Origin: Pristiophorus japonicus
Lineage: Eukaryota
DNA: 64,000 nucleotides
NCBI RefSeq assembly: GCF_044704955.1
Contig: NC_091980.1
Span: 130,572,001-130,636,000 of the forward strand
Reading direction: 5' to 3'
Of this stretch, positions 2,820-63,119 are shown in pieces. Each line of letters starts with the position of its first letter. The first letter of the stretch is position 1. The notes under the pieces are model-generated. The model did no database searches and had not been told where the DNA came from. It saw nothing but the letters and a program-made list of their open reading frames with translations. The position numbers and the translations under genes were made by a program.

Positions 2820-2961
2820 CAGCCCCCTCCGCCGAACCCCCTCTCCTTTGTTAATTGGTGCCTCAATTCAGGGAAGATTCCTGATTGGCTCTGAGGGATT
2901 GTCAATCATCATTGGTGATGTCATACCCTGTTTGAATGCAGCTGTTCCAATAGTATAAATA
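2820..2961 (+). promoter_or_regulatory. Type A ferritin promoter (TATA plus multiple CCAAT boxes)
   Basis: TATAAATA at 2954-2961, 76 nt before the ATG; ATTGG at 2854, 2884, 2911; CCAAT at 2947; GC-box-like CCCCCTCCGCC near 2823. Confidence 0.7.
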
Positions 2962-3029
2962 CAGGAGCTTGTGCAAGATAGAGTGATTTCTAGAACTGTG
3001 CAGGTGATAGTGAAATATAGATAGAGAAG

Positions 3030-6000
3030 ATGGCCTCCCAAGTGTGTCAGAACTACCACAAGGACTGTGAGGCTGCTGTCAACAAGCAGATCAACATGGA
3101 GCTCTGTTCCTCCTATGTTTACCTCTCCATGGTGAGTTGTGTATTCCTTGTTGCTGCATTCTGAAAAGTTGTTAATTCTCCAGTTCAATGAATTGGCTTT
3201 AAGTTGTATTTCTCTTGACTTCCTTCCCTGGGGGAGCAGAGTCTTTGGGCAGTGAGAACTTCAACTGTGTAATACAGGGGATCTTGTTGAGTTCATGGAC
3301 TGCTCCCTACAGCAGCTGCTCTCTATTGAAGTTTAATATCGGAAATCAGCTCAGCTGCTGCCTGAGTGTGACAGAAGAGCACAAACCTGGTCAGGGGCCT
3401 GTTGACCTGAGACAATGTTCAGTTTCAGTGGGGGACTGCAGTGAGTGAAATGTGGGTAGGTTCTCATTAGTGCTCTCATTAATTGGAGGTGATGTACTGA
3501 GAATCCTGCTGTTGGAGCCCTGCTCACTGCTGAGATCTCTTGCACTATTGTTGTGTAAACTACTGGAGTGGAGGATTTTTCTCACTCCATGTCCACACTT
3601 TGATTTAGAATGGAAGAAGAATCATTTCTATAATGCCTTTCACTACCTTGGAATATCCCAAGTGCTTTGTAGCCAATGAAGGAGTTAAGTGTAGTTACCT
3701 GTTATGTGGGAAATGCAGCAGCCAATTAGTGCACAGGATGCTCCCACAAACTGAAATTAGATAATGATCAGATCATCTGTTTTAGTGGTGTTGGTTGAGG
3801 GATAAATATTAGCCAGGAATATGGTGGAATTCTGCATTAGGATGGAGAATGAAACAGTTAATTCAGAGACCATGGTCCAGAACTTAAAGAAGGCTAACTT
3901 TGAAGGTATGAGGCGTGAATTGGCTGAGATGGATTGGCGAATGATACTTAAGGGGTTGACTGTGGATGGGCAATGGCAGACATTTAGAGACCGCATGGAT
4001 GAACTACAACAATTGTACATTCCTGTCTGGCATAGAAATAAAAAAGGGAAGGTGGCTCAACCGTGGCTATCAAGGGAACTCAGGGATAGTATTAAAGCCA
4101 AGGAAGTGGCATACAAATTGGCCAGAAATAGCAGCGAACCTGGGGACTGGGAGAAATTTAGAACTCAGCAGAGGAGGACAAAGGGTTTGATTAGGGCAGG
4201 GAAAATGGAGTATGAGAAGAAGCTTGCAGGGAACATTAAGACGGATTGCAAAAGTTTCTATAGATATGTAAAGAGAAAAAGGTTAGTAAAGACAAATGTA
4301 GGTCCCCTGCAGTCAGAATCAAGGGAAGTCATAACGGGGAACAAAGAAATGGCGGACCAATTGAACAAGTACTTTGGTTCGGTATTCACGAAGGAGGACA
4401 CGAACAACCTTCCGGTTATAAAAGGGGTCGGGGGGTCTAGTAAGGAGGAGGAACTGAGGGAAATCCTTATTAGCCGGGAAATTGTGTTGGGGAAATTGAT
4501 GGGATTGAAGGCCGATAAATCCCCAGGGCCTGATGGACTGCATCCCAGAGTACTTAAGGAGGTGGCCTTGGAAATAGTGGATGCGTTGACAGTCATTTTC
4601 CAACATTCCATTGACTCTGGATCAGTTCCTATGGAGTGGAGGGTAGCCAATGTAACCCCACTTTTTAAAAAAGGAGGGAGAGAGAAAACAGGGAATTATA
4701 GACCGGTCAGCCTGACATCGGTAGTGGGTAAAATGATGGAATCAATTATTAAGGATGTCATAGCAGTGCATTTGGAAAGAGGTGACATGATAGGTCCAAG
4801 TCAGCATGGATTTGTGAAAGGGAAATCATGCTTGACAAATCTTCTGGAATTTTTTGAGGATGTTTCCAGTAGAGTGGATAAGGGAGAACCAGTTGATGTG
4901 GTATATTTGGACTTTCAGAAGGCGTTCGACAAGGTCCCACACAAGAGATTGATGTGCAAAGTTAGAGCACATGGGATTGGGGGTAGTGTACTGACATGGA
5001 TTGAGAACTGGTTGTCAGACAGGAAGCAAAGAGTAGGAGTAAATGGGTACTTTTCAGAATGGCAGGCAGTGACTAGTGGGGTACCGCAAGGTTCTGTGCT
5101 GGGGCCCCAGCTGTTTACACTGTACATTAATGATTTAGATGAGGGGATTAAATGTAGTATCTCCAAATTTGCGGATGACACTAAGTTGGGTGGCAGTGTG
5201 AGCTGCGAGGAGGATGCTGTGAGGCTGCAGAGCGACTTGGATAGGTTAGGTGAGTGGGCAAATGCATGGCAGATGAAGTATAATGTGGATAAATGTGAGG
5301 TTATCCACTTTGGTGGTAAAAACAGAGAGACAGACTATTATCTGAATGGTGACAGATTAGGAAAAGGGGAGGTGCAAAGAGACCTGGGTGTCATGGTACA
5401 TCAGTCATTGAAGGTTGGCATGCAGGTGCAGCAGGCGGTTAAGAAAGCAAATGGCATGTTGGCCTTCATAGCAAGGGGATTTGAGTACAGGGGCAGGGAG
5501 GTGTTGCTACAGTTGTACAGGGCATTGCTGAGGCCACACCTGGAGTATTGTGTACAGTTTTGGTCTCCTAACCTGAGGAAGGACATTCTTGCTATTGAGG
5601 GAGTGCAGCGAAGGTTCACCAGACTGATTCCCGGGATGGCGGGACTGACCTATCAAGAAAGACTGGATCAACTGGGCTTGTATTCACTGGAGTTCAGAAG
5701 AATGAGAGGGGACCTCATAGAAACATATAAAATTCTGACGGGGTTAGACAGGTTAGATGCAGGAAGAATGTTCCCAATGTTGGGGAAGTCCAGAACCAGG
5801 GGTCACAGTCTAAGGATAAGGGGTAAGCCATTTAGGACCGAGATGCGGAGGAACTTCTTCACCCAGAGAGTGGTGAACCTGTGGAATTCTCTACCACAGA
5901 AAGTTGTTGAGGCCAATTCAGTAAATATATTCAAAAAGGAGTTAGATGAGGTCCTTACTGCTAGGGGGATCAAGGGGTATGGCGAGAAAGCAGGAATGGG

Positions 6001-9000
6001 GTACTGAAGTTGAATGTTCAGCCATGAACTCATTGAATGGCCTACTCCTGCACCTATTTTCTATGTTTCTATGTTTCTATGTAGGACACTGCAGAGAGCT
6101 CCTTGCAGTAGTATCTAGAACATGGAGAAGGCTTGAGGGACCAATGGCTGACTCCTGTCATTCACTAAGATCATTGCTAATCTTGTACCTCAACTCCACC
6201 TCCTGCACTGTCCCCATATCCTTTGCTATCCAAAAATCTATTGCTCTTGAATAGACTCAATGACTGGAATTCTCTAACCCAGGAGCTGTGGAGGCTCAAA
6301 GAGTCATCATGGAGTGAAGAAATTTCTCCTCATCTCAGTCCTCAATGACCCCTGGTTCTAGTCTCTCTCCAGCAAGGGGAACCATCCTCCCTGCATCCAA
6401 TCCTTCAAGTCCTGTAAGAATTTTGTACATTCCTAATGACATCACCTCTCATCCTTTGAACCTTGAATAGAGGCTCAGTCTGCTCAATCTCTCCTCCTTG
6501 ATCTTTCACATCCACCTCATGACTGACACACTCTTGTGTGAATGGCAGAAAGTAGAGGAGGTGTTGCTTATCCAGGAGTAGAATTTAGTTTGACTGGACA
6601 TGAAATATAATCCTGAACTTTAGTTTTATATGTTCAACCAGCAAAGGAAAAACTTTCATCATGCTATGGGGAGGTGAGGCTCAACTCCAATTGATGAAGT
6701 CAATGGCATTTTGCTAGTTTACAAATGGTGTCTATCTTATTAAGAATTCATTCATTCTGGGGAAAAATAACTCTTGCATTGTATATGAAGATCAAGGTCT
6801 AAATAGGCTGTCTTAATTTCTCTCTGCAGTCCTTCTACTTTGACCGGGATGATGTTGCCCTGCGTCACTTTGCTGAGTTCTTCAAGGAGCAGTCACATGA
6901 GGAACGTGAGCATGCTGAGAAACTGATGCAATTCCAGAATCGCCGTGGAGGACGGATCATCTTGTCTGACATCAAGGTTTGGTTCAAATCTTTAGTGGCC
7001 TTCTGTCTGGATACCCTTAGACCTGATTGTTTCAAATACCTCCTAAAGCAATTGATTCCGTGGTAGTGGAATTCAGTAATTCTATATTCCTGTGACATTG
7101 TTTATGGTAAAATGGACTTCTGGTTGCTTTTTTATCCTATTTTTCTTTGTACAGTCTTTTGTATTTTGTTTGTTCCATTGTAAGTGAACTACCTGTGATT
7201 TTCCTCTTCAGAAACCAGAGCAGGATGAGTGGAGCAATGGTCTGGATGCAATGCAGAGAGCTCTGCAGATGGAGAAGAATGTGAACCAGAGTCTGCTGGA
7301 TCTGCACACAATCTCCACTGGGAGCACTGACCCTCATGTAAGTTCCTCATGTGGGTTTCTGGGCAACTTGGAGGTGGTGGAACATTGCTATCCTTGAGCT
7401 GTTTCAAAAGTGCTCCATGTCCAATAGCTTTGTTTTTAGGGGGGGTGGTCTCTCTTGGGTTCTTCAGGGGGTGGGGGAGAGGACCATGAAGTTGGCCAAC
7501 TGTGGACATTGAGACATAAATGGGTCCCAATGTTTCCAGGATCTGAGCTCTCATTTGTAGGGGAGGATGAAAACCCCCTCATTTTACCCAGAAGGAAAAG
7601 GGCTGTGGGATCAGTCTGTGCTGTGAATTGAAACCGATGGAAGGAAAACTTTGGGACACAAATGGAGACCCCCCCCCCCCCAGTGTTTGGACTCAAAGGA
7701 AAGGGAATTTAATTTGGAACTATCTACCAAAAAGTTTGAAATCCTCAAGTACACATGGAAGAAACTATGAACTTTCATCGAATTTGGGATTTTTTAAAAG
7801 GTCTGCAAGAAAAGGGGTGGAGTCAATATCAAAAGGGCCAGTTTGGACATTGGAACTAATCAAATTGTCTGGGAACTGTATACCCTCGAAACTTGCCCCT
7901 TGAAAACATTAGCATTTAAACAATGCCACATACATATTCCAACACCTTTTTCATCAGGCATAGAAATATCTGGCTCAGGCCAGACTAGCACAATGGCTAC
8001 AGGAGGCCAATGCAATCAACACCCACTCAAACCTTGAGTAGGTTAAGATCAGTGGGGGAAAAAAAACCTACAAACATCAAACTGCTGCATTTTTCAAAAT
8101 CAAAAGTCCACCAATGAGAAGAATCGACTTCAGCAGGAGAGGCGGACTGGATAATCTGGCTATCAACAAGGGGTTTCTGACGTAGTGAAAAAAGAAATGA
8201 TGATTTTCCCTGCCCTCATGATTCAACAACCACAACCACAACCACAAGCCTCTCGACACTGAAGGAAAACCAGTGTCCGAAGATAGAAGAAACAAACCAC
8301 CAGACTGCGGAAGGCACAGTAGTGAGTATAACCTCCGGTCCCCAGAACTCCCAACTCAGTTAGGCCAGGAAAGGTGGGAGGTTGGGCATTGTACTGCTAA
8401 ACTGGTGTAAAGATTTTTGTTGGGTCTGTTTTTGTGGGATTTAGGGGGATTGTTTTGTTGGTGTATTGCTGTTTGTTGAATTACACCTTGTCAAATAAAT
8501 TGGAAGCCTAAAGTTCCTCTTGGAATCACCTTGTCTCAGTTCTATTGTATTACATCTCCTGATCATGAGTCTTATGCCAGAACCGTGTAAGGGAAGCTAG
8601 GAGTGCCTTGAAAACGCTCAACTGTGTGTCACAGGCTAGGGAAGAAGGTGTTAGGAGTGTTTGACACTCACAGGTGTCTCACAGGCTAGGCAAAAGCTGT
8701 GGGGACGCACGAGTCTCAAAACCCCCTTCATAAGCTGTGGATACAGTCTCTCCAGGGGTGCTCTTGCAGCACTCTGGGTACTTCACAGGTCAGGCATAAG
8801 CTGTGAGGGCAGAAGCCCAGAGAGAGACACCCAAGGCACAACAACAACCCTGTGAAAACCCCTTGCACATTGCACAGTAGCAACTGGATCATTAGAGCAA
8901 ATGTACATCAATTTCAATTGCCCAACCTGATCCTTCTCCACTCCTAGAGAATTAAAATCCTAACTTGGGGGGGGATGCACTGATCCTTGATATCTGTTAC

Positions 9001-9188
9001 TGGCCATAACTCATTTCCCTCTTCTCTTTCAGTTGTGTGACTTCCTGGAGACCCACTACTTGGATGAACAAGTCAAGATGATCAAGAAGCTTGGTGATCA
9101 CATCACCAACCTGAAGAGACTGGGAGCCCCTGAGAATGGCATGGGAGTGTACTTTTTTGACAAGCACACTCTGGAGGAGAGTGACTAA
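3030..9188 (+). CDS. FTH1: Ferritin heavy/middle-type subunit, type A copy 1 (176 aa, 4 exons)
   Basis: Exons 3030-3131, 6830-6976, 7212-7337, 9033-9188, all GT-AG, phase 0. Protein [176 protein letters not shown]. Intron positions match vertebrate ferritins. E27, Y34, E61, E62, H65, E107 and Q141 are present. AATAAA at 9306-9311. The symbol is family-level only; orthology (H vs M/heavy-chain-B) is unresolved. Confidence 0.95.
3625..3818 (-). mobile_element. SINE/L2-tail-like fragment in type A intron 1
   Basis: Resembles, from recollection, the 3' tail of a common shark SINE (CCCAAAGCGCTTTACAGCCAATGAAG...GGTTGAGGGATAAATATTGGCCAGGACAC type); not database-checked. Confidence 0.45.
3819..6082 (+). 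mobile_element. Young 5'-truncated CR1 LINE in A1 intron 1
   Basis: 4-bp TSD AGGA (3815-3818 and 6083-6086), (TTTCTATG)n tail, empty sites in A2 (near 31553) and A3 (near 61865). Confidence 0.97.
3821..6007 (+). CDS. CR1 ORF2 reverse transcriptase (endonuclease domain truncated), 728 aa uninterrupted
   Basis: Motifs [40 protein letters not shown] and [11 protein letters not shown]. Confidence 0.93.
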   Translation: MVEFCIRMENETVNSETMVQNLKKANFEGMRRELAEMDWRMILKGLTVDGQWQTFRDRMDELQQLYIPVWHRNKKGKVAQPWLSRELRDSIKAKEVAYKLARNSSEPGDWEKFRTQQRRTKGLIRAGKMEYEKKLAGNIKTDCKSFYRYVKRKRLVKTNVGPLQSESREVITGNKEMADQLNKYFGSVFTKEDTNNLPVIKGVGGSSKEEELREILISREIVLGKLMGLKADKSPGPDGLHPRVLKEVALEIVDALTVIFQHSIDSGSVPMEWRVANVTPLFKKGGREKTGNYRPVSLTSVVGKMMESIIKDVIAVHLERGDMIGPSQHGFVKGKSCLTNLLEFFEDVSSRVDKGEPVDVVYLDFQKAFDKVPHKRLMCKVRAHGIGGSVLTWIENWLSDRKQRVGVNGYFSEWQAVTSGVPQGSVLGPQLFTLYINDLDEGIKCSISKFADDTKLGGSVSCEEDAVRLQSDLDRLGEWANAWQMKYNVDKCEVIHFGGKNRETDYYLNGDRLGKGEVQRDLGVMVHQSLKVGMQVQQAVKKANGMLAFIARGFEYRGREVLLQLYRALLRPHLEYCVQFWSPNLRKDILAIEGVQRRFTRLIPGMAGLTYQERLDQLGLYSLEFRRMRGDLIETYKILTGLDRLDAGRMFPMLGKSRTRGHSLRIRGKPFRTEMRRNFFTQRVVNLWNSLPQKVVEANSVNIFKKELDEVLTARGIKGYGEKAGMGY
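6140..6500 (-). mobile_element. Decayed CR1 3' fragment in type A intron 1
   Basis: GAAGAAATTTCTCCTCATCTCAGTCCT etc. is the reverse complement of the CR1 3' end; contains an inverted 32-mer. Confidence 0.7.
7556..8867. mobile_element. 1312-bp solo LTR in A1 intron 3
   Basis: Termini TGTAGGGG...CCCCTTGCA, 4-bp TSD CATT (7552-7555 and 8868-8871), internal AATAAA, no coding capacity; absent from A2 (near 33024). Confidence 0.8.
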
Positions 9189-10964
9189 ACTGACTGGGAT
9201 CAAGCTTATTGTGTTTAGTACTTGTATTTATATAATCAGGCCCCTATACTGTAGGGAATGAATGCTTGTGACTTTGTACAAAAAGAGCTGAAACCCATAA
9301 CAGTAAATAAACTGTTCAACATTGGGCTGTGTTTTGTCACCTTGTAAATTTGAGTGGTTACTTATTTTTCATTTAACATAACTTGGCTTCTATCAAACAA
9401 GAATTACACTGACCTGTGCAACATTTATATGGGATTCAGTCTTATGAAATATGTTTTCCCCCTTGTGTAATGTCTATGTATTGACTGGGCCATTCAGGCA
9501 CCTGTTATAAGATCTAAAATGTTCAATGGTGTGTTTGGACAACTGACAGCCCCATGGGATATTGGCCCAGTTATCAAAAGTCTGGTCAGAGGTATGTATT
9601 GAGAAGGTACAGAGATGTTTAGGAAGGCATGTCTAGAGCTTGGGACTGATAAGCTGTATACAATTACCTGTTCCAACGATCTGTTTTTTACAAAGGAGAA
9701 TTCAATCCAACAAGATGTAACATCTGCTAAATTCAGGACCAATTTGCCAGTAATTCATTGTTGCACCATTTCAGTCGAATGAAGAAGTAGTCCTGGATTA
9801 GCTTCCTATTTAGTCTATCTGCCTCGTGAACGAACAGCAGTTTGTATTCAATCGCTGCAACAGATCCTCTTCAGTTATGCAGGTCGTTCAGAAATGGGAT
9901 TCACCACTGCTGCTATCGGCTTGCTGTTAAGCTTTGTAGGCAGAAAAGCAATATCTCAGCACACTGAACTCTGGGCACTACAATTGGGTGAGGAGGGAAA
10001 GCAACAGCTGGCATTAGCTTGCTGTCATAGCTTCAGTGCTTCGTGTGGATACCCTAGTCGTTCTGGGACAGCTTCTCTTCCGTCTGCTCCCCTAATGGTT
10101 GAATAACTTGCCAACACAACCTCCATTCAAACATGAATAAGGTATTGCAAGACTAACGATACTCCAACAACATTTAATACTTGGGGAAGGTGTAAATGTA
10201 TTTAATTCCACAAAGCAAAAGGCACAAGATGTTAAACCCATTTCTGGCCACAATGCCTAAGCACTCAATTTATAAGCCTATCAATTTTTTTTTGTTAGTA
10301 ATGAAATTCACAGTGGTACTAACACTCTGGATTAGATCTTCATTTCTCTCCTTCATGGCTATGAATGGATACAAATGGTACTGCTGCTCCAATAATCCAG
10401 TGTTTACGAGTTATTTTTAGGAATTTAACTGAGAACTGTGTTGAGTGCAATTAAATAGCCATGCACAGACATTCCAGGTTAATGTCTTGGCAACACTCAA
10501 GTGCCTTTCGGCTATCGATGTTACAAACTGTCATATATTGATGAGCCACAGTTCCACGAGTCGGCCTGGGTTTGCGTGCTGATGGGTTTGATGGCTTCAT
10601 GTATCAACAAATCTCTAGCTCACTCGATGTGAAACTTTACAGGTGCTCGTGTTTTAAGAATTACTTACAATTTGCAGCTCAGGAAAAAGACCATTTGGGC
10701 CAACTGGGCCATGCTGTGGTTTATGCTCCATGTGAAACTTGTCCCACCCCACTTCATCTAGACCTATTAGCATATCCTTCTATTCCTTTCCCCTTTGTGT
10801 TGATCAAGCTTTCCCTTAAATGCATCTATGCTCTTTGCATTCAGAGTTATTACTGCGGGTAGCTCAGTAAACGCACTGCTGCTGCTGTGGATTTTCTGTT
10901 CAGCTGTGTGGGTAAAGAAGTGAGTAACAGCTTTCAAGACCCGCAATGTTTGAGCTCAAGGACA

Positions 10965-16724: not shown

Positions 16725-16891
16725 CAGCCAATGATGCTCATTCTTCGAAGATCTGATTGGCTCTGGGAGTCCATCTCCCTCCTCCCTTTACTTGATTGGT
16801 GCTCTGAGAAGATGCAACTTCTGATTGGGTATTGATGACTGTCACTCATCATCAAGAGTGCCACACCCTGGATTATCCCTCAGTATAAATA
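16725..16891 (+). promoter_or_regulatory. Type B ferritin promoter (TATA plus multiple CCAAT boxes)
   Basis: TATAAATA at 16884-16891, 83 nt before the ATG; CCAAT at 16728; ATTGG at 16756, 16795, 16824; alignable with the type A promoter. Confidence 0.7.
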
Positions 16892-16966
16892 TTGGAGTTT
16901 GATATTAGTGAAATGTTATCTTTGTACTTCTAAAAAGTTTTTACTTTGGAAAAATAAAATATTAAG

Positions 16967-25752
<8,786 letters not shown>

Positions 25753-26329
25753 CGCTTCTGATCAGTACTCTTGTTTATACAATATGTGTGAGACTCTGTG
25801 CTACATAGAATGATGGCTTTGTACAGGCTGAGACCTGGGCTCTTGCTGTGAAATGTAATCAACTGTAAATAAACTGTTCAATATTGGACTGGGTTTTGTC
25901 TCCTTGCAATTAGTGGTTGCTTATTTTCCATTTACTGTAACTTGTTTGCAGCACAAGTATTGCACTAGGCTATGCAACAATCATACATTGGCCTCCTGTG
26001 CTGTAACCACTCAGCTGGCTCTCCAAGAACACTTCAGCTCGTCCTACTCCCTTGCATTTTCCCTGTTGCCCTGCAATGTTTTTCCTTCATGTACTTGTTC
26101 AATCCTATGATTGAAACTGCTTTCACCACCCTCTCAGGCAGTGCAATCCAGATATTAACCACTCATTGCATAAAAGTTTATCCTCATGTCAGCTGTGGTT
26201 CTTCTGCCAATTGTCTTAAATTTGTGTCTGCTGGTTCTCGTCCCTTCTACGAGTGTTAATAGTCCTATAATTTTGCTCGTTGCTGGGGTAATTTCAATAT
26301 ATTGACAGTTATATTCATAAAAACATAAG

Positions 26330-30562: not shown

Positions 30563-30704
30563 CAGACCCCTCCTACAAATCCCCTCTCCTTTGTTAATTG
30601 GTGCCTCAATTCAGGGAAGATTCCTGATTGGCTCTGAGGGATTGTCAATCATCATTGGTGATGTCATACCCTGTTTGAATGCAGCTGTTCCAATAGTATA
30701 AATA
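30563..30704 (+). promoter_or_regulatory. A2 promoter
   Basis: Paralogue of 2820-2961; TATAAATA at 30697-30704. Confidence 0.65.
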
Positions 30705-30772
30705 CAGGAGCTTGTACAAGACAGTGTGAGTTTCAGAACTGTGCAGAGGATAGTGAAATATAGATAGTGAAG

Positions 30773-33350
<2,578 letters not shown>

Positions 33351-35111
33351 ACTGACTGGGATCAAGCTTTTTGTGTTTAGTACTTGCATTTATATAATCA
33401 GGCCAATATACTGTAGGGAATGAAGGCTTGTGGGTTTCAGCTCTTTTTGCACAAAGTCACAACAGTAAATAAACAGTTCAACATTGGGCTGTGTTTTGTC
33501 ACCTTGTAAATTTGAGTGGTTACTTATTTTTCATTTAACTTAACTTGATTTCCATCAAACAAGAATTACACTGACCTGTGCAACATTTATAGGGGATTCA
33601 GTCCTATGAAATGTGTTTTCCCCTTGTGTAATGTCTATGTATTGACTGGGCCATTCAGGCACCTGTTATAAGATCTAAAATGTTCAATGGTGTGTTTGGA
33701 CAACTGACAGTCCCATGGGATATTGGCCCAGTGACCAAAAGTCTGGTCAGAGGTATGTATTGAGAAGGTACAGAGATGTTTAGGAAGGCATGTCTAGAGC
33801 TTGGGACTGATAAGCTGTATCCAATGATCTGTCTTTGTACAAATGACAATTCAATCCAACAAGATGTAACATCTGCTAAACTCAGGGCCAATTTGCCAGT
33901 AATTCATTGTTGTACCATTTCAGTCCAATGACGAAAAAGTCCTGGATTAGCTTCCTATTTAGTCTATCTGCCTCGTGAACGAACAGCAGTTTGTATTCAA
34001 TAGCTGCAACAGATCCTCTTCAGTTATGCAGGTCGTTCAGTAATGGGACTCATCACTGCTGCTTTAGGCTTGCTGTTAAGCTTTGTAGGCAGAAAAGCAA
34101 TATCTCAGCACACTGAACTCTGGCCACCACAATTGGGTGAGGAGGGAAAGCAACAGCTGGCATCAGCTTGCTGTCATAGCTTCAGTGCTTCGTGCGGATA
34201 TCCTAGTCGTTCTGAGACAGCTTCTCTTCTGTCTGCTCCCCTAATGGTTGAATAACTTGCCAACACAACCTCCATTCAAACATGAATAAGGTATTGCAAG
34301 ACTAGCGATACTCCAACAACATTTACTACTTGGGGAAGGTGTAAATGTATTTAATTCCACAAAGCAAAAGGAACAAGATGTTAAACCCATTTCTGGCCAC
34401 AATGCCGAAGCACTCAATTTATAAGCCCATCAATTTTTTTTTTTGTTAGTAATGAAATTCACAGTGGTGCTATCACCCTGGATTCGATCTCCATTTCTCT
34501 CCTCCGTGGCTATGAATGGATACAAATGGTATTGCTGCAGCTCCAATAATCCAGTATTTACTAGTTATTTTTAGTAATTTAACTGTGTTGAGTGCAATTA
34601 AATAGCCATGTATAGACATTCCAGGTTAATGTCTTGGCAACACTCAAGCGCCTTTTGGCTATCGATGTTACAAAATGTCATATATTGATGAGCCACAGTT
34701 CCACGAGTCGGCCTGGGTTTGCGTGCTGATGGGTTTGATAGCTTCATGTATCAACAAATCTCCAGCTCACTCGATGTGAAACTTTACAGGTGCTCGTGTT
34801 TTAAGAATTACTTACAATTTACAGCACAGGAAAAAGACCATTTGGGCCAACTGGGCCATGCTGTGGTTTATGCTCCATGTGAAACTTGTCCCACCCCACT
34901 TCATCTAGACCTATTAGCATATCCTTCTACTCCTTTCTCCTTGTGTTTATCAAGCTTTCCCTTAAATGCATCTATGCTCTTTGCATTCAGAGTTATTACT
35001 GCGGGTAGCTCAGTAAACGCACTGCTGCTGCTGTGGATTTTCTGTTAAGCTGTGTGGGTAAAGAAGTGAGTAACAGCTATAAAGATCCGCAATGTTTGAG
35101 CTCAAGGACAG

Positions 35112-40827: not shown

Positions 40828-40996
40828 GTCAGCCAATGATGCTCATTCTTCAAAGATCTGACTGGCTCTGGGAGTCCATCTCCCTCCTTCCTTTACTTGA
40901 TTGGTGCTTTGAGAAGATGCAACTTCTGATTGGGTACTGATGACTGTCACTCATCATCAAGAATGCCACACCCTGGATTATCCCTCAGTATAAATA
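40828..40996 (+). promoter_or_regulatory. B2 promoter
   Basis: Paralogue of the B1 promoter; TATAAATA at 40989-40996; one ATTGG is mutated to ACTGG. Confidence 0.65.
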
Positions 40997-41071
40997 TAGG
41001 TGTTTGAGATTGACAAAATGTTACCTTTGCACTTCTACAAAGTTTTTATTTTGGAAAAATAAAATATTAAG

Positions 41072-56101
<15,030 letters not shown>

Positions 56102-56679
56102 TCAGTACTCGTGTTTATACAACGGGTGATATACTCTGTCCTACATAGAATGGTGGCTTTGTACAGGCTGAGACCTGGGCTCTTGATGTGAAATGTAATC
56201 AACTGTAAATAAACTGTTCAATATTGAGCTGGGTTTTTTCTCTTTGCAAGTTACTGGTTGCTTATTTTCGATTTACCATAACTTGCAGCACAAGTATTGC
56301 ACTCGGTTATGCAACAATCATACATTGGCCCTCTGTGCTGTAACCACTCAGCCTGTTGAGCCTCTGCTGGCTCTCCAAGAGCACTTCAGCTCGTCCTACT
56401 CCCTTGCATTTTCCCTGTAGCCTGCAATGTTTTTCCTTCATGTCCCTGTTCAATCCTATGATTGAAACTGGCTTCACCACCCCCTCGGGCAGTGCAATCC
56501 AGATATTATCCACTCACTGCATAAAAGTTTATCCTCATGTCAGCTGTAGTTCTTCTGCCAATTGTCTTAAATTTGTGTCTGCTGGTTGTCGTCCCTGCTG
56601 TCAGTGCAAACAGTCCTATAATTTTTTGCTTTGCTGGAATAATTTCAATATATTGACATTCCTATTCACAAAAACATAA

Positions 56680-60867: not shown

Positions 60868-61009
60868 CAGCCCCCTCCGCCGAACCCCCTCTCCTTTGTT
60901 AATTGGTGCCTTAATTCAGGGAAGATTCCTGATTGGCTCTGAGGGATTGTCAATCATCATTGGTGATGTCATACCCTGTTTGAATGCAGCTGTTCCAATA
61001 GTATAAATA
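60868..61009 (+). promoter_or_regulatory. A3 promoter
   Basis: Paralogue of the A1 promoter; TATAAATA at 61002-61009. Confidence 0.65.
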
Positions 61010-61077
61010 CAGTAGCTTGTGCAAGATAGAGTGAGTTCTAGAACTGTGCAGGTGATAGTGAAATATAGATAGAGAAG

Positions 61078-63119
61078 ATGGCCTCCCAAGTGCGTCAGAA
61101 CTTCCACAAGGACTGTGAGGCTGCTGTCAACAAGCAGATCAACATGGAGCTCTGTTCCTCCTATGTTTACCTCTCCATGGTGAGTTGTGTATTCTTTGTT
61201 GCTGCATTCTGAAAAGTTGTTAATTCTCCAGTTCAATGAATTGGCTTTAAGTTGTATTTCTCTTGACTTCCTTCCCTGGGGGAGCAGAGTCTTTGGGCAG
61301 TGAGAACTTCAGCTGTGTAATACAGGGGATCTTGTTGAGTTCATGGACTGCTCCTGACAGCAGCTGCCCTCTATTGAGGTTTAATATTGGAAACCAGCTC
61401 AGCTGCTGCCTGAGTGTGTGACAGAAGAGCACAAACCTGGTCAGGGGCCTGTTGACCTGAGACAATGTTCAGTTTCAGTGGGGGACTGCAGTGAGTGAAA
61501 TGTGGGTAGGTTCTCATTAGTGCTCTCATTAATTGGAGGTGATGTACTGAGAATCCTGCTGTTGGAGCCCTGCTCACTGCTGAGATCTCTTGCACTATTG
61601 TTGTGTAAACTACTGGAGTGGAGGATTTTTCTCACTCCATGTCCACACTTTGATTTAGAATGGAAGAAGAATCATTTCTATAATGCCTTTCACTACCTTG
61701 GAATATCCCAAGTGCTTTGTAGCCAATGAAGGAGTTAAGTGTAGTTACCTGTTATGTGGGAAATGCAGCAGCCAATTAGTGCACAGGATGCTCCCACAAA
61801 CTGAAATGAGATAATGATCAGATCATCTGTTTTAGTGGTGTTGGTTGAGGGATAAATATTAGCCAGGACACTGCAGAGAGCTCCTTGCAGTAGTATCTAG
61901 AACATGGAGAAGGCTTGAGGGACCAATGGCTGACTCCTGTCATTCACTAAGATCATTGCTAATCTTGTACCTCAACTCCACCTCCTGCACTGTCCCCATA
62001 TCCTTTGCTATCCAAAAATCTATTGCTCTTGAATATACTCAATGACTGGAATTCTCTAACCCAGGAGCTGTGGAGGCTCAAAGAGTCATCATGGAGTGAA
62101 GAAATTTCTCCTCATCTCAGTCCTCAATGACCCCTGGTTCTAGTCTCTCTCCAGCAAGGGGAACCATCCTCCCTGCATCCAATCCTTCAAGTCCTGTAAG
62201 AATTTTGTATATTCCTAATGACATCACCTCTCATCCTTTGAACCTTGAATAGAGGCTCAGTCTGCTCAATCTCTCCTCCTTGATCTTTCACATCCACCTC
62301 ATGACTGACACACTCTTGTGTGAATGGCAGAAAGTAGAGGAGTTATTGCTTATCCAGGAGTAGAATTTAGTTTGACTGGACATGAAATATAATCCTGAAC
62401 TTTAGTTTTATATGTTCAACCAGCAAAGGAAAAACTTTCATCATGCTATGGGGAGGTGAGGCTCAACTCCAATTGATGAAGTCAATGGCATTTTGCTAGT
62501 TTACAAATGGTGTCTATCTTTTTAAGAATTCATTCATTCTGGGGAAAAATAACTCTTGCATTGTATATGAAGATCAAGGTCTAAATAGGCTGTCTTAATT
62601 TCTCTCTGCAGTCCTTCTACTTTGACCGGGATGATGTTGCCCTGTGTCACTTTGCTGAGTTCTTCAAGGAGCAGTCACATGAGGAACGTGAGCATGCTGA
62701 GAAACTGATGCAATTCCAGAATCGCCGTGGAGGACGGATCATCTTGTCTGACATCAAGGTTTGGTTCAATTATTTAGTGGCCTTCTGTCTGGATACCCTT
62801 AGACCTGATTGTTTCAAATACCTCCTAAAGCAATTGATTCCGTGGTAGTGGAATTCAGTAATTCTATATTCCTGTGACATTATTTATGGTAAAATGGACT
62901 TCTGGTTGCTTTTTTATCCTATTTTTCTTTGTACTGTCTTTTGTATTTTGTTTGTTCCATTGTAAGTGAACTACCTGTGATTTTCCTCTTCAGAAACCAG
63001 AGCAGGATGAGTGGAGCAATGGTCTGGATGCAATGCAGAGAGCTATGCAGATGGAGAAGAATGTGAACCAGAGTCTGCTGGATCTGCACACAATCTCCAC
63101 TGGGAGCACTGACCCTCAT
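61078..63119 (+). CDS. FTH1: Ferritin heavy/middle-type subunit, type A copy 3 (exons 1-3; exon 4 lies beyond the window)
   Basis: Exons 61078-61179, 62612-62758, 62994-63119. [48 protein letters not shown].../KPEQ...RAMQMEKN...[11 protein letters not shown]. Symbol is family-level only. Confidence 0.9.

Follow-up and report, generated by a model that had tools for sequence, protein, structure and literature searches.

Ferritin genes of the window and the surrounding array

The DNA considered here is a 64-kb stretch of the genome of the sawshark Pristiophorus japonicus (G000:C4:130572001-130636000; "the window"), which contains five ferritin genes, all on the + strand. A sequence-only reading of the window had proposed that these genes lack the iron-responsive element (IRE), a 5′-untranslated region (5′-UTR) hairpin bound by iron regulatory proteins (IRPs). 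Three are of one type (A1, A2 and A3) and two of another (B1 and B2). As that reading held, they contain introns: A1, B1, A2 and B2 lie wholly within the window, each divided into four exons by GT-AG introns and each with an open frame of 176–179 amino acids (aa), and A3 has only its exon 4 outside the window, with an exon-4 match at G000:C4:130636804. The genes are embedded in segmental repeats of 88–99% identity and are laid out as follows:

3030..9188, + strand: ferritin A1; exons 3030-3131, 6830-6976, 7212-7337, 9033-9188; 176 aa, open; AATAAA at 9306
16967..25752, + strand: ferritin B1; exons 16967-17068, 19847-19993, 25166-25291, 25597-25752; 176 aa, open; AATAAA at 25868
30773..33350, + strand: ferritin A2; exons 30773-30874, 32299-32445, 32689-32814, 33195-33350; 176 aa, open; AATAAA at 33468
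41072..56101, + strand: ferritin B2; exons 41072-41173, 50157-50303, 55503-55628, 55937-56101; 179 aa, open; AATAAA at 56208
61078..63119, + strand: ferritin A3, exons 1-3; exons 61078-61179, 62612-62758, 62994-63119

Intron lengths vary several-fold among copies through insertions such as that of ~2.3 kb in A1 intron 1 (window 3819-6082), which is found in neither A2 nor A3 and which we take to be LINE-like (LINE, long interspersed nuclear element).

The window covers roughly 1% of a 5.6-Mb ferritin array on contig C4. The five genes are a small sample of a multi-megabase array of a kind already described in other sharks as ovary-expressed. Among the best 150 of 1034 Ferritin-domain candidates, which were scored, 137 lie on C4 at 127.8-133.4 Mb. 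An exon-4 probe has 334 matches genome-wide, with 98 of the first 100 listed falling in that same interval, and an exon-1 probe has 185; from these counts the array comprises roughly 330 copies over 5.6 Mb. We read 151 stretches of it (1.20 Mb unique), chosen from search listings and not at random, which yielded 141 distinct first exons at 127.79-133.41 Mb, 37 of A-type and 104 B-like; 132 of the 141 have an ATG and no stop. The nearest database proteins to those of the array are labelled as sawshark, then as other sharks, rays and chimaera; automatic names of the "oocyte isoform-like" sort were given no weight as evidence. No distinct gene of a second multi-copy shark type (P0075) appeared among the best 150 of 1407 candidates.

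Transcript starts and the search for an intact IRE

Each of the five genes has a TATA box, TATAAATA, at 2954, 16884, 30697, 40989 or 61002, which places it 76 nucleotides (nt) before the ATG in A1, A2 and A3 and 83 nt before it in B1 and B2 (ATGs at 3030, 16967, 30773, 41072 and 61078), exactly as the sequence-only reading had positioned it. The predicted 5′-UTRs of the array genes are short, at about 45–55 nt. The promoter features of the window are:

2854..2951, + strand: A1 proximal promoter; inverted CCAAT at 2854, 2884 and 2911, forward CCAAT at 2947
2954..2961, + strand: A1 TATA box; predicted start ~30 nt downstream
2984..3029, + strand: A1 predicted 5′-UTR, ~46 nt, no IRE
16728..16891, + strand: B1 promoter; CCAAT/ATTGG at 16728, 16756, 16795 and 16824, TATA box at 16884-16891
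30597-30694 and 60902-60999, + strand: A2 and A3 proximal promoters; CCAAT layout as in A1
30697..30772, + strand: A2 TATA box and predicted 5′-UTR, no IRE by sequence scan
40833..40996, + strand: B2 promoter; CCAAT/ATTGG at 40833, 40900 and 40929, TATA box at 40989-40996
61002..61077, + strand: A3 TATA box and predicted 5′-UTR, no IRE by sequence scan

CCAAT boxes number three to four within 240 nt of promoter, compared with about one in shuffled sequence (mean 3.8 versus 1.1 in A copies), and NFYA is described as driving oocyte promoters in mouse (PMC13060261). Antioxidant response elements (AREs) are matched in 0 of 36 A copies and 2 of 68 B copies, and neither these nor metal response elements (MREs) are in excess in the array promoters.

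Retrocopies also bear on where transcripts begin. Alignment to an array gene starts 44 nt ahead of the ATG (~TATA+41) for a spliced retrocopy on C3 and 55 nt ahead of it (~TATA+29) for a partly spliced one on C11; as a control, a retrocopy of the H gene starts at TATA+31. These retrocopies are colinear with the genomic UTR, and no acceptor-like AG was found between TATA box and ATG in A1, B1 or B2. Altogether we read six dispersed spliced copies of array-type genes, and the formation of such copies needs germ-line transcripts. At G000:C11:6523.4-6523.7 kb (- strand), the array-type copy L050 has exons 1 and 2 fused and continues into intron-2-like sequence; it is a now broken retrocopy whose source transcript was partly spliced. 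Six sequencing runs matched weakly, at a share of 0.05, and none contained half of the query words. Four (X1, X2, X3 and X5) match coding exon 1 only and so are uninformative on the UTR, their lack of upstream cover carrying no weight here; another, X6, from another organism and available as contigs whose RNA status is a guess, has spliced contigs on exon 1 at a summed depth of several hundred thousand, against 24–44 on the promoter, a poor measure to which we give little weight.

No intact IRE was found in the window. Rfam returned no IRE match there at the gathering score and, at E≤10, nine matches of which none came from an IRE family. With a covariance model built from the genome's own ferritin IREs, which by construction scores intact IREs at 61.7–67.7 bits, the best hit in the window and 68 array stretches reached 12.4 bits (E=1). 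A rule scan modelled on the published description of SIREs (PMC2896125), using canonical loops only and not the 16 SELEX-derived loops, recovered both control IREs and gave four one-mismatch sense-strand sites in the window, 5.3–11 kb from the next ATG. These Infernal/Rfam and SIREs-type checks, which the sequence-only reading had itself proposed, agree with it that no canonical IRE precedes the five genes; across the sample, a canonical IRE occurs in the 400 nt before the ATG in 0 of 141 array copies.

Several look-alikes were considered and set aside. The CAGTGT at the predicted start site of A2 has no stem, and a C-N5-CTGTGC register in A1 forms two of five stem pairs and matches the IRE at 12/23 positions, a score reached by 9372 of 20000 shuffles. 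A hairpin in intron 1 with a C bulge and a CAGTGA loop (19731-19747 and 50041-50057) lies downstream of the ATG, 116 nt before exon 2, and has a poor lower stem; its upper stem is perfect in 16 other array copies, and it is probably a chance structure amplified by duplication. The C-N5-CAGWGH core occurs 81 times in the window against 60 ± 8 expected, a slight excess due to repeats and duplication and not to hairpins. A looser pattern, with array-type arms around an intact loop, was swamped by 5339 matches from one repeat, and none of the 85 exact matches listed lies in the array. The window copy of that repeat, an IRE look-alike at 52829-52848 (- strand), lies within coding sequence, has ~5300 near-copies genome-wide and is a source of false IRE calls here; we take the surrounding coding sequence to be retrotransposon reverse-transcriptase/RNase H-like.

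Elsewhere in the genome, ferritin-type IREs are found, with at least six Rfam RF00037 matches (82 candidates scored) and 10 pattern matches, all of them on other contigs and none in the array. Among them are those of an H gene (contig C14) and an M-like gene (C19), together with those of an H retrocopy (C20) and of scattered pieces of the C19-gene 5′-UTR. The IREs of the C14 and C19 genes are perfect, and intact elements on two genes would imply a working IRP system. One amendment to the sequence-only reading is that the array genes are not the animal's ordinary cytosolic ferritins, these IRE-bearing H and M-like genes being present besides. Another is that the combination of introns and a missing nearby IRE is not unique to the array: three further intron-containing ferritin genes on C19 have no IRE in 420 nt upstream. 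A four-exon gene from G000:C19:93128522 onward (+ strand; L130:22-216, with exons 2-3 in L130 and exon 4 in L056) has a 31-residue N-terminal extension that includes seven Arg/Lys and lacks acidic residues; its promoter is GC-rich, and that interval contains no IRE. By its sequence it resembles a mitochondrial ferritin with introns, whereas mammalian FTMT is intronless. Two single ferritin genes, L129:3056 (- strand) and L057:4326 (+ strand), lie beside the IRE-bearing M-like gene (G000:C19:93.11-93.20 Mb), with no IRE within 420 nt upstream in a scan of the proximal sequence only; one has Lys and Gln at two ferroxidase positions and an array-like TATA context, and the other is L-like. Four fragments, L002-L005 (on C10, C12, C17 and C18), hold the C19 gene's IRE and part of its 5′-UTR with no coding sequence nearby, and appear to be short retroposed or captured pieces that scatter perfect IREs.

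An IRE remnant and its interpretation

Although no intact element precedes the array genes, the B-like 5′-UTRs contain a sequence that lines up in register with the C19 gene's IRE. In the best copy, L082, this sequence reads TTCTTG C TTCAA CAAGGT TTAGA, compared with TTCTTG C TTCAA CAGTGT TTGAA in the C19 gene, an identity of 19/23 that was reached by 0 of 20000 dinucleotide shuffles. Typical B-like copies score 17/23 (reached by 6 and 22 of 20000 shuffles), and none of 581 window tiles exceeds 15/23. At a threshold of ≥13/23, 99 of the 104 B-like copies could be aligned, the five with deleted or replaced UTRs being left out. What these copies have in common is the loss of specific loop bases. 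Position 16 of the IRE is A in 98 copies and C in one, so that G16 is kept in none; position 17 is A in 92, G in six and C in one (one tie resolved), so that U17 is kept in none; and none of the 99 aligned remnants retains the AGU triplet at positions 15-17. G16 and U17 are two of the bases that contact IRP1. Published work describes A15, G16 and U17 as all needed for IRE regulation, with adenine unable to replace the G16 contact (PMC8466369).

The rest of the element is preserved unevenly. Among 66 copies, C14 is kept in 61 and G18 in 55 (the C14-G18 pair is present in B2 and absent in B1), and the C at position 8 in 51, B1 and B2 included, mostly without a helix from which it could bulge. 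The full five-pair upper stem can form in only five of the 66; the 3′ arm in its usual form pairs with a mismatch, the lower stem is broken up, and folding predictions give no IRE hairpin. The remnant loop begins at TATA+49 in 44 of 54 measurable copies, against TATA+59 in the intact C19 gene. In the window, the corresponding features, aligned to L082, are:

16921..16943, + strand: B1 decayed IRE remnant; C8 kept, loop AAAAGT, 2/5 upper-stem pairs
41026..41048, + strand: B2 decayed IRE remnant; C8 kept, loop CAAAGT, 2/5 upper-stem pairs

Taken alone, these two score 14/23 and are not significant (1760 and 1629 of 20000 shuffles; p about 0.08-0.09). The earlier claim of IRE absence is sound in the functional sense and needs amending in the historical one, in that B1 and B2 carry sequence in register with a decayed IRE, clearly recognizable as such in better-preserved copies. 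For the B-like subfamily at least, the element decayed where it stood.

All seven ferroxidase residues (equivalents of E27, Y34, E61, E62, H65, E107 and Q141, in what we take to be the numbering of this site) align in A1, A2, B1 and B2, in keeping with the earlier view that these are ferroxidase-competent by sequence, and P0006, a close relative, gives matches to solved ferritins with E near 1e-89. The ratio of nonsynonymous to synonymous substitution (dN/dS) between A and B types is 0.14-0.20. In a 52-row tree, a starred clade unites the shark and ray array proteins, its sister being two chimaera proteins; it stands separate from a starred H clade that includes the C14 gene. In a 22-row tree (LG+G4; unrooted, as is the larger tree, with no invertebrate outgroup and with long branches X, Y and L and redundant rows left out), the approximately unbiased (AU) test rejects a grouping of the array with shark and chimaera H (p-AU 0.002) or with all six H rows (p-AU 0.018); a grouping with shark M, the IRE-bearing C19 gene, is neither rejected (p-AU 0.083) nor recovered in the tree. 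Because of the separate starred clades and the AU rejections, the array proteins are not FTH1 orthologues, and caution is due when array copies are counted in comparative or longevity studies, where they should not be entered as FTH1 or FTL orthologues.

Some residues of the array proteins are also distinctive. At residue 19 (window 3084-3086 and equivalents), H and M chains have Arg and the array proteins Lys, which is also the residue of one chimaera relative and of the second multi-copy type of sharks. Arg23 of ferritin is reported to be bound by NCOA4 (PMC11719527), and a Lys at this contact position might possibly reduce ferritinophagy. At the conserved Tyr29 position of H chains (window 3105-3107 and equivalents), A-type proteins have Cys and B2 has Ser; position 144 is Met or Val in A1, A2, B1 and B2, and several array copies have Cys at residue 6.

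We consider it probable that the mRNAs of the ~330-copy array escape IRP repression through a broken IRE and likely serve to build up a ferritin stock in the ovary or oocyte, in amounts that gene dosage and promoter activity likely govern. On this account, an ancestral IRE-bearing non-H ferritin gene would have lost its loop bases before the array expanded, since the same change is common to copies across 5.6 Mb. By published structural rules, IRPs would no longer bind the array 5′-UTRs; if IRPs cannot repress these mRNAs, their output would follow transcription and gene dosage, as the sequence-only reading had suggested. Such uncoupling is a prediction from sequence. Expression may well be ovarian, a less certain step that leans on another shark and on retrocopies needing germ-line transcripts. 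Large yolky eggs would benefit by gaining iron stores and protection from oxidation at a time when scarce free iron would hold an IRE-bearing mRNA closed, and bulk ferritin deposition would gain from removing that switch. Ferritin mRNA is reported to be abundant in fish ovaries (PMC1488847).

Several observations temper this interpretation. The 37 A-type copies, including A1, A2 and A3, have no significant remnant (11–13/23, chance level), so that in-place decay is established for B-like copies alone; and because the copies share ancestry, the remnant counts as one event and not as 99. Five of 66 copies can still form a 5-bp upper stem, some array copies are broken by stops or frameshifts, and within-type dN/dS is 0.4–0.5, on few changes. 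The sample covers 141 of the ~330 copies. As to the site of expression, CCAAT boxes occur widely among promoters of different types and are no proof of an oocyte one; the sequencing runs found are weak matches from other organisms, as contigs only; and the orthology of the Greenland shark cluster with the array is inferred from the protein clade and not from synteny. In addition, a tandem ferritin expansion in the hadal snailfish is reported to be expressed in most tissues (PMC10746142), and expansion therefore need not mean ovary.

That last precedent favors an explanation in which the IRE was lost from a somatic stress or immune ferritin, broadly expressed for oxidative protection, as the tandem snailfish fthl27 copies are high in most tissues and are described as lowering reactive oxygen species in cells (PMC10746142). 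We think this unlikely, given the dearth of ARE matches (0/36 A, 2/68 B) and the lack of MRE excess in the array promoters, the ovary-specific cluster of the Greenland shark (10.1101/2024.09.09.611499) and the six spliced copies that need germ-line transcripts. Near-identical segmental repeats, broken copies and the higher within-type dN/dS would also be expected of a largely neutral birth-and-death expansion, or in part of an assembly artefact, with IRE decay reflecting relaxed selection on redundant copies and serving no regulatory purpose. This seems improbable in view of the low dN/dS between types, the occurrence of these proteins in large clusters across several orders of sharks and in rays, with a chimaera sister group, and a loop change common to all aligned copies instead of scattered among them; the very deep spliced exon-1 contigs of one run, a weak measure, point the same way.

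A remnant that still functions, either as an IRP site of weak and non-canonical type or in a new role with some other RNA-binding protein, would account for the retention of C8, the 5′ arm, C14, A15 and G18 in most B-like copies, for the five full upper stems and for the loose 5′ ends of the X6 contigs, which contain the 3′ part of the remnant (a weak sign of cross-species conservation, from one run). However, G16 and U17 are gone from 99 of 99 copies, the usual 3′ arm is mismatched, the disrupted lower stem gives no predicted IRE hairpin, the remnant columns are conserved no better than the flanking UTR, and A-type copies do without a remnant altogether; we regard this idea as very improbable. 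An upstream non-coding exon carrying an IRE, which the sequence-only reading had named as the finding that would overturn it, owes its plausibility to start sites predicted from TATA boxes and retrocopy ends, and it was looked for. Model searches of the 64-kb window and the array stretches gave no IRE-scoring sequence, no acceptor-like AG lies between TATA and ATG in A1, B1 or B2, and a hidden exon is made unlikely by the decayed IRE already accounted for in the TATA-proximal exon and by retrocopies that start near the TATA box and are colinear with the genomic UTR. We give this possibility almost no credence.

If the array mRNAs have indeed escaped IRP control through a broken IRE, a broader and decidedly tentative idea can be considered: that cartilaginous fishes evolved a dedicated egg ferritin, in which the IRP-contact bases were broken first and amplification of several hundred-fold followed, and which, with Lys in place of Arg23, may be insulated from both iron-dependent translation and turnover for long-term maternal iron storage. 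Were this true, nature would have produced across a whole lineage a counterpart of the IRE mutations behind human hyperferritinemia. More generally, the 5′-UTR IRE counts as a defining feature of cytosolic ferritin in vertebrates, and most ferritin genes of this shark have lost it; that the dead element can still be read allows the events to be ordered, with loss before or early in the expansion.

Comparison with known ferritin systems

Part of what is described here is already known: ferritin expansion and ovary-specific expression in sharks, and IRE-less ferritins in invertebrates and as mammalian retrocopies. In a literature search, with most subscription journals and preprint supplements outside reach, we found no report that shark ferritins have lost the IRE or retain a remnant of it. 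The ferritin expansion is reportedly also treated in a second genome paper on the Greenland shark.

Among mammals, neither FTMT nor FTHL17 is known to have an IRE, and FTHL17 is a retrocopy. They combine absence of IRP control with gonad-linked expression, as is predicted for the array; they are retrocopies (FTMT is described as intronless; PMC11719527), whereas the array genes have introns and no targeting leader, and their IRE was lost by point decay, at least in the B-like type. The yolk ferritin of the snails Biomphalaria and Lymnaea, reported to have no IRE, offers an analogy, and not a homology, as a reproductive ferritin without an IRE beside soma ferritins of the IRE type (PMC10799875). 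It is described as single-copy, with a signal peptide and a 42-aa insertion, neither of which occurs in the massively amplified 176–179 aa proteins of the window; schistosome ferritins are a comparable case, to go by the title of a work cited in PMC1488847. In fishes, hadal snailfish fthl27 resembles the array as a tandem amplification of a ferritin heavy-chain-like gene, and differs in having 14 copies and broad expression; IRE status is not taken up there (PMC10746142). By comparison, all five salmon ferritin isoforms are reported to have a 5′-UTR IRE (PMC4117605). With canonical vertebrate H and M ferritins the array genes share four exons and three introns, ferroxidase residues, a TATA promoter and an IRE-homologous position just past the start site; unlike them, they have a broken loop and stem, a 5′-UTR of ~45-55 nt and hundreds of copies.

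The nearest parallel is in other sharks. The Greenland shark is reported to have 334 ferritin copies, in clusters shared with the great white shark, the largest of them ovary-specific; like the sawshark array, these comprise hundreds of mostly full-length copies in large clusters (10.1101/2024.09.09.611499). The preprint labels its copies FTH1 and FTL, whereas the sawshark array proteins belong to a clade of their own among cartilaginous fishes, and in its main text the word "iron" does not occur and iron regulation is not mentioned (10.1101/2024.09.09.611499). A broken IRE would supply a mechanism for the ovary-specific ferritin clusters of sharks, which have been published but not explained.

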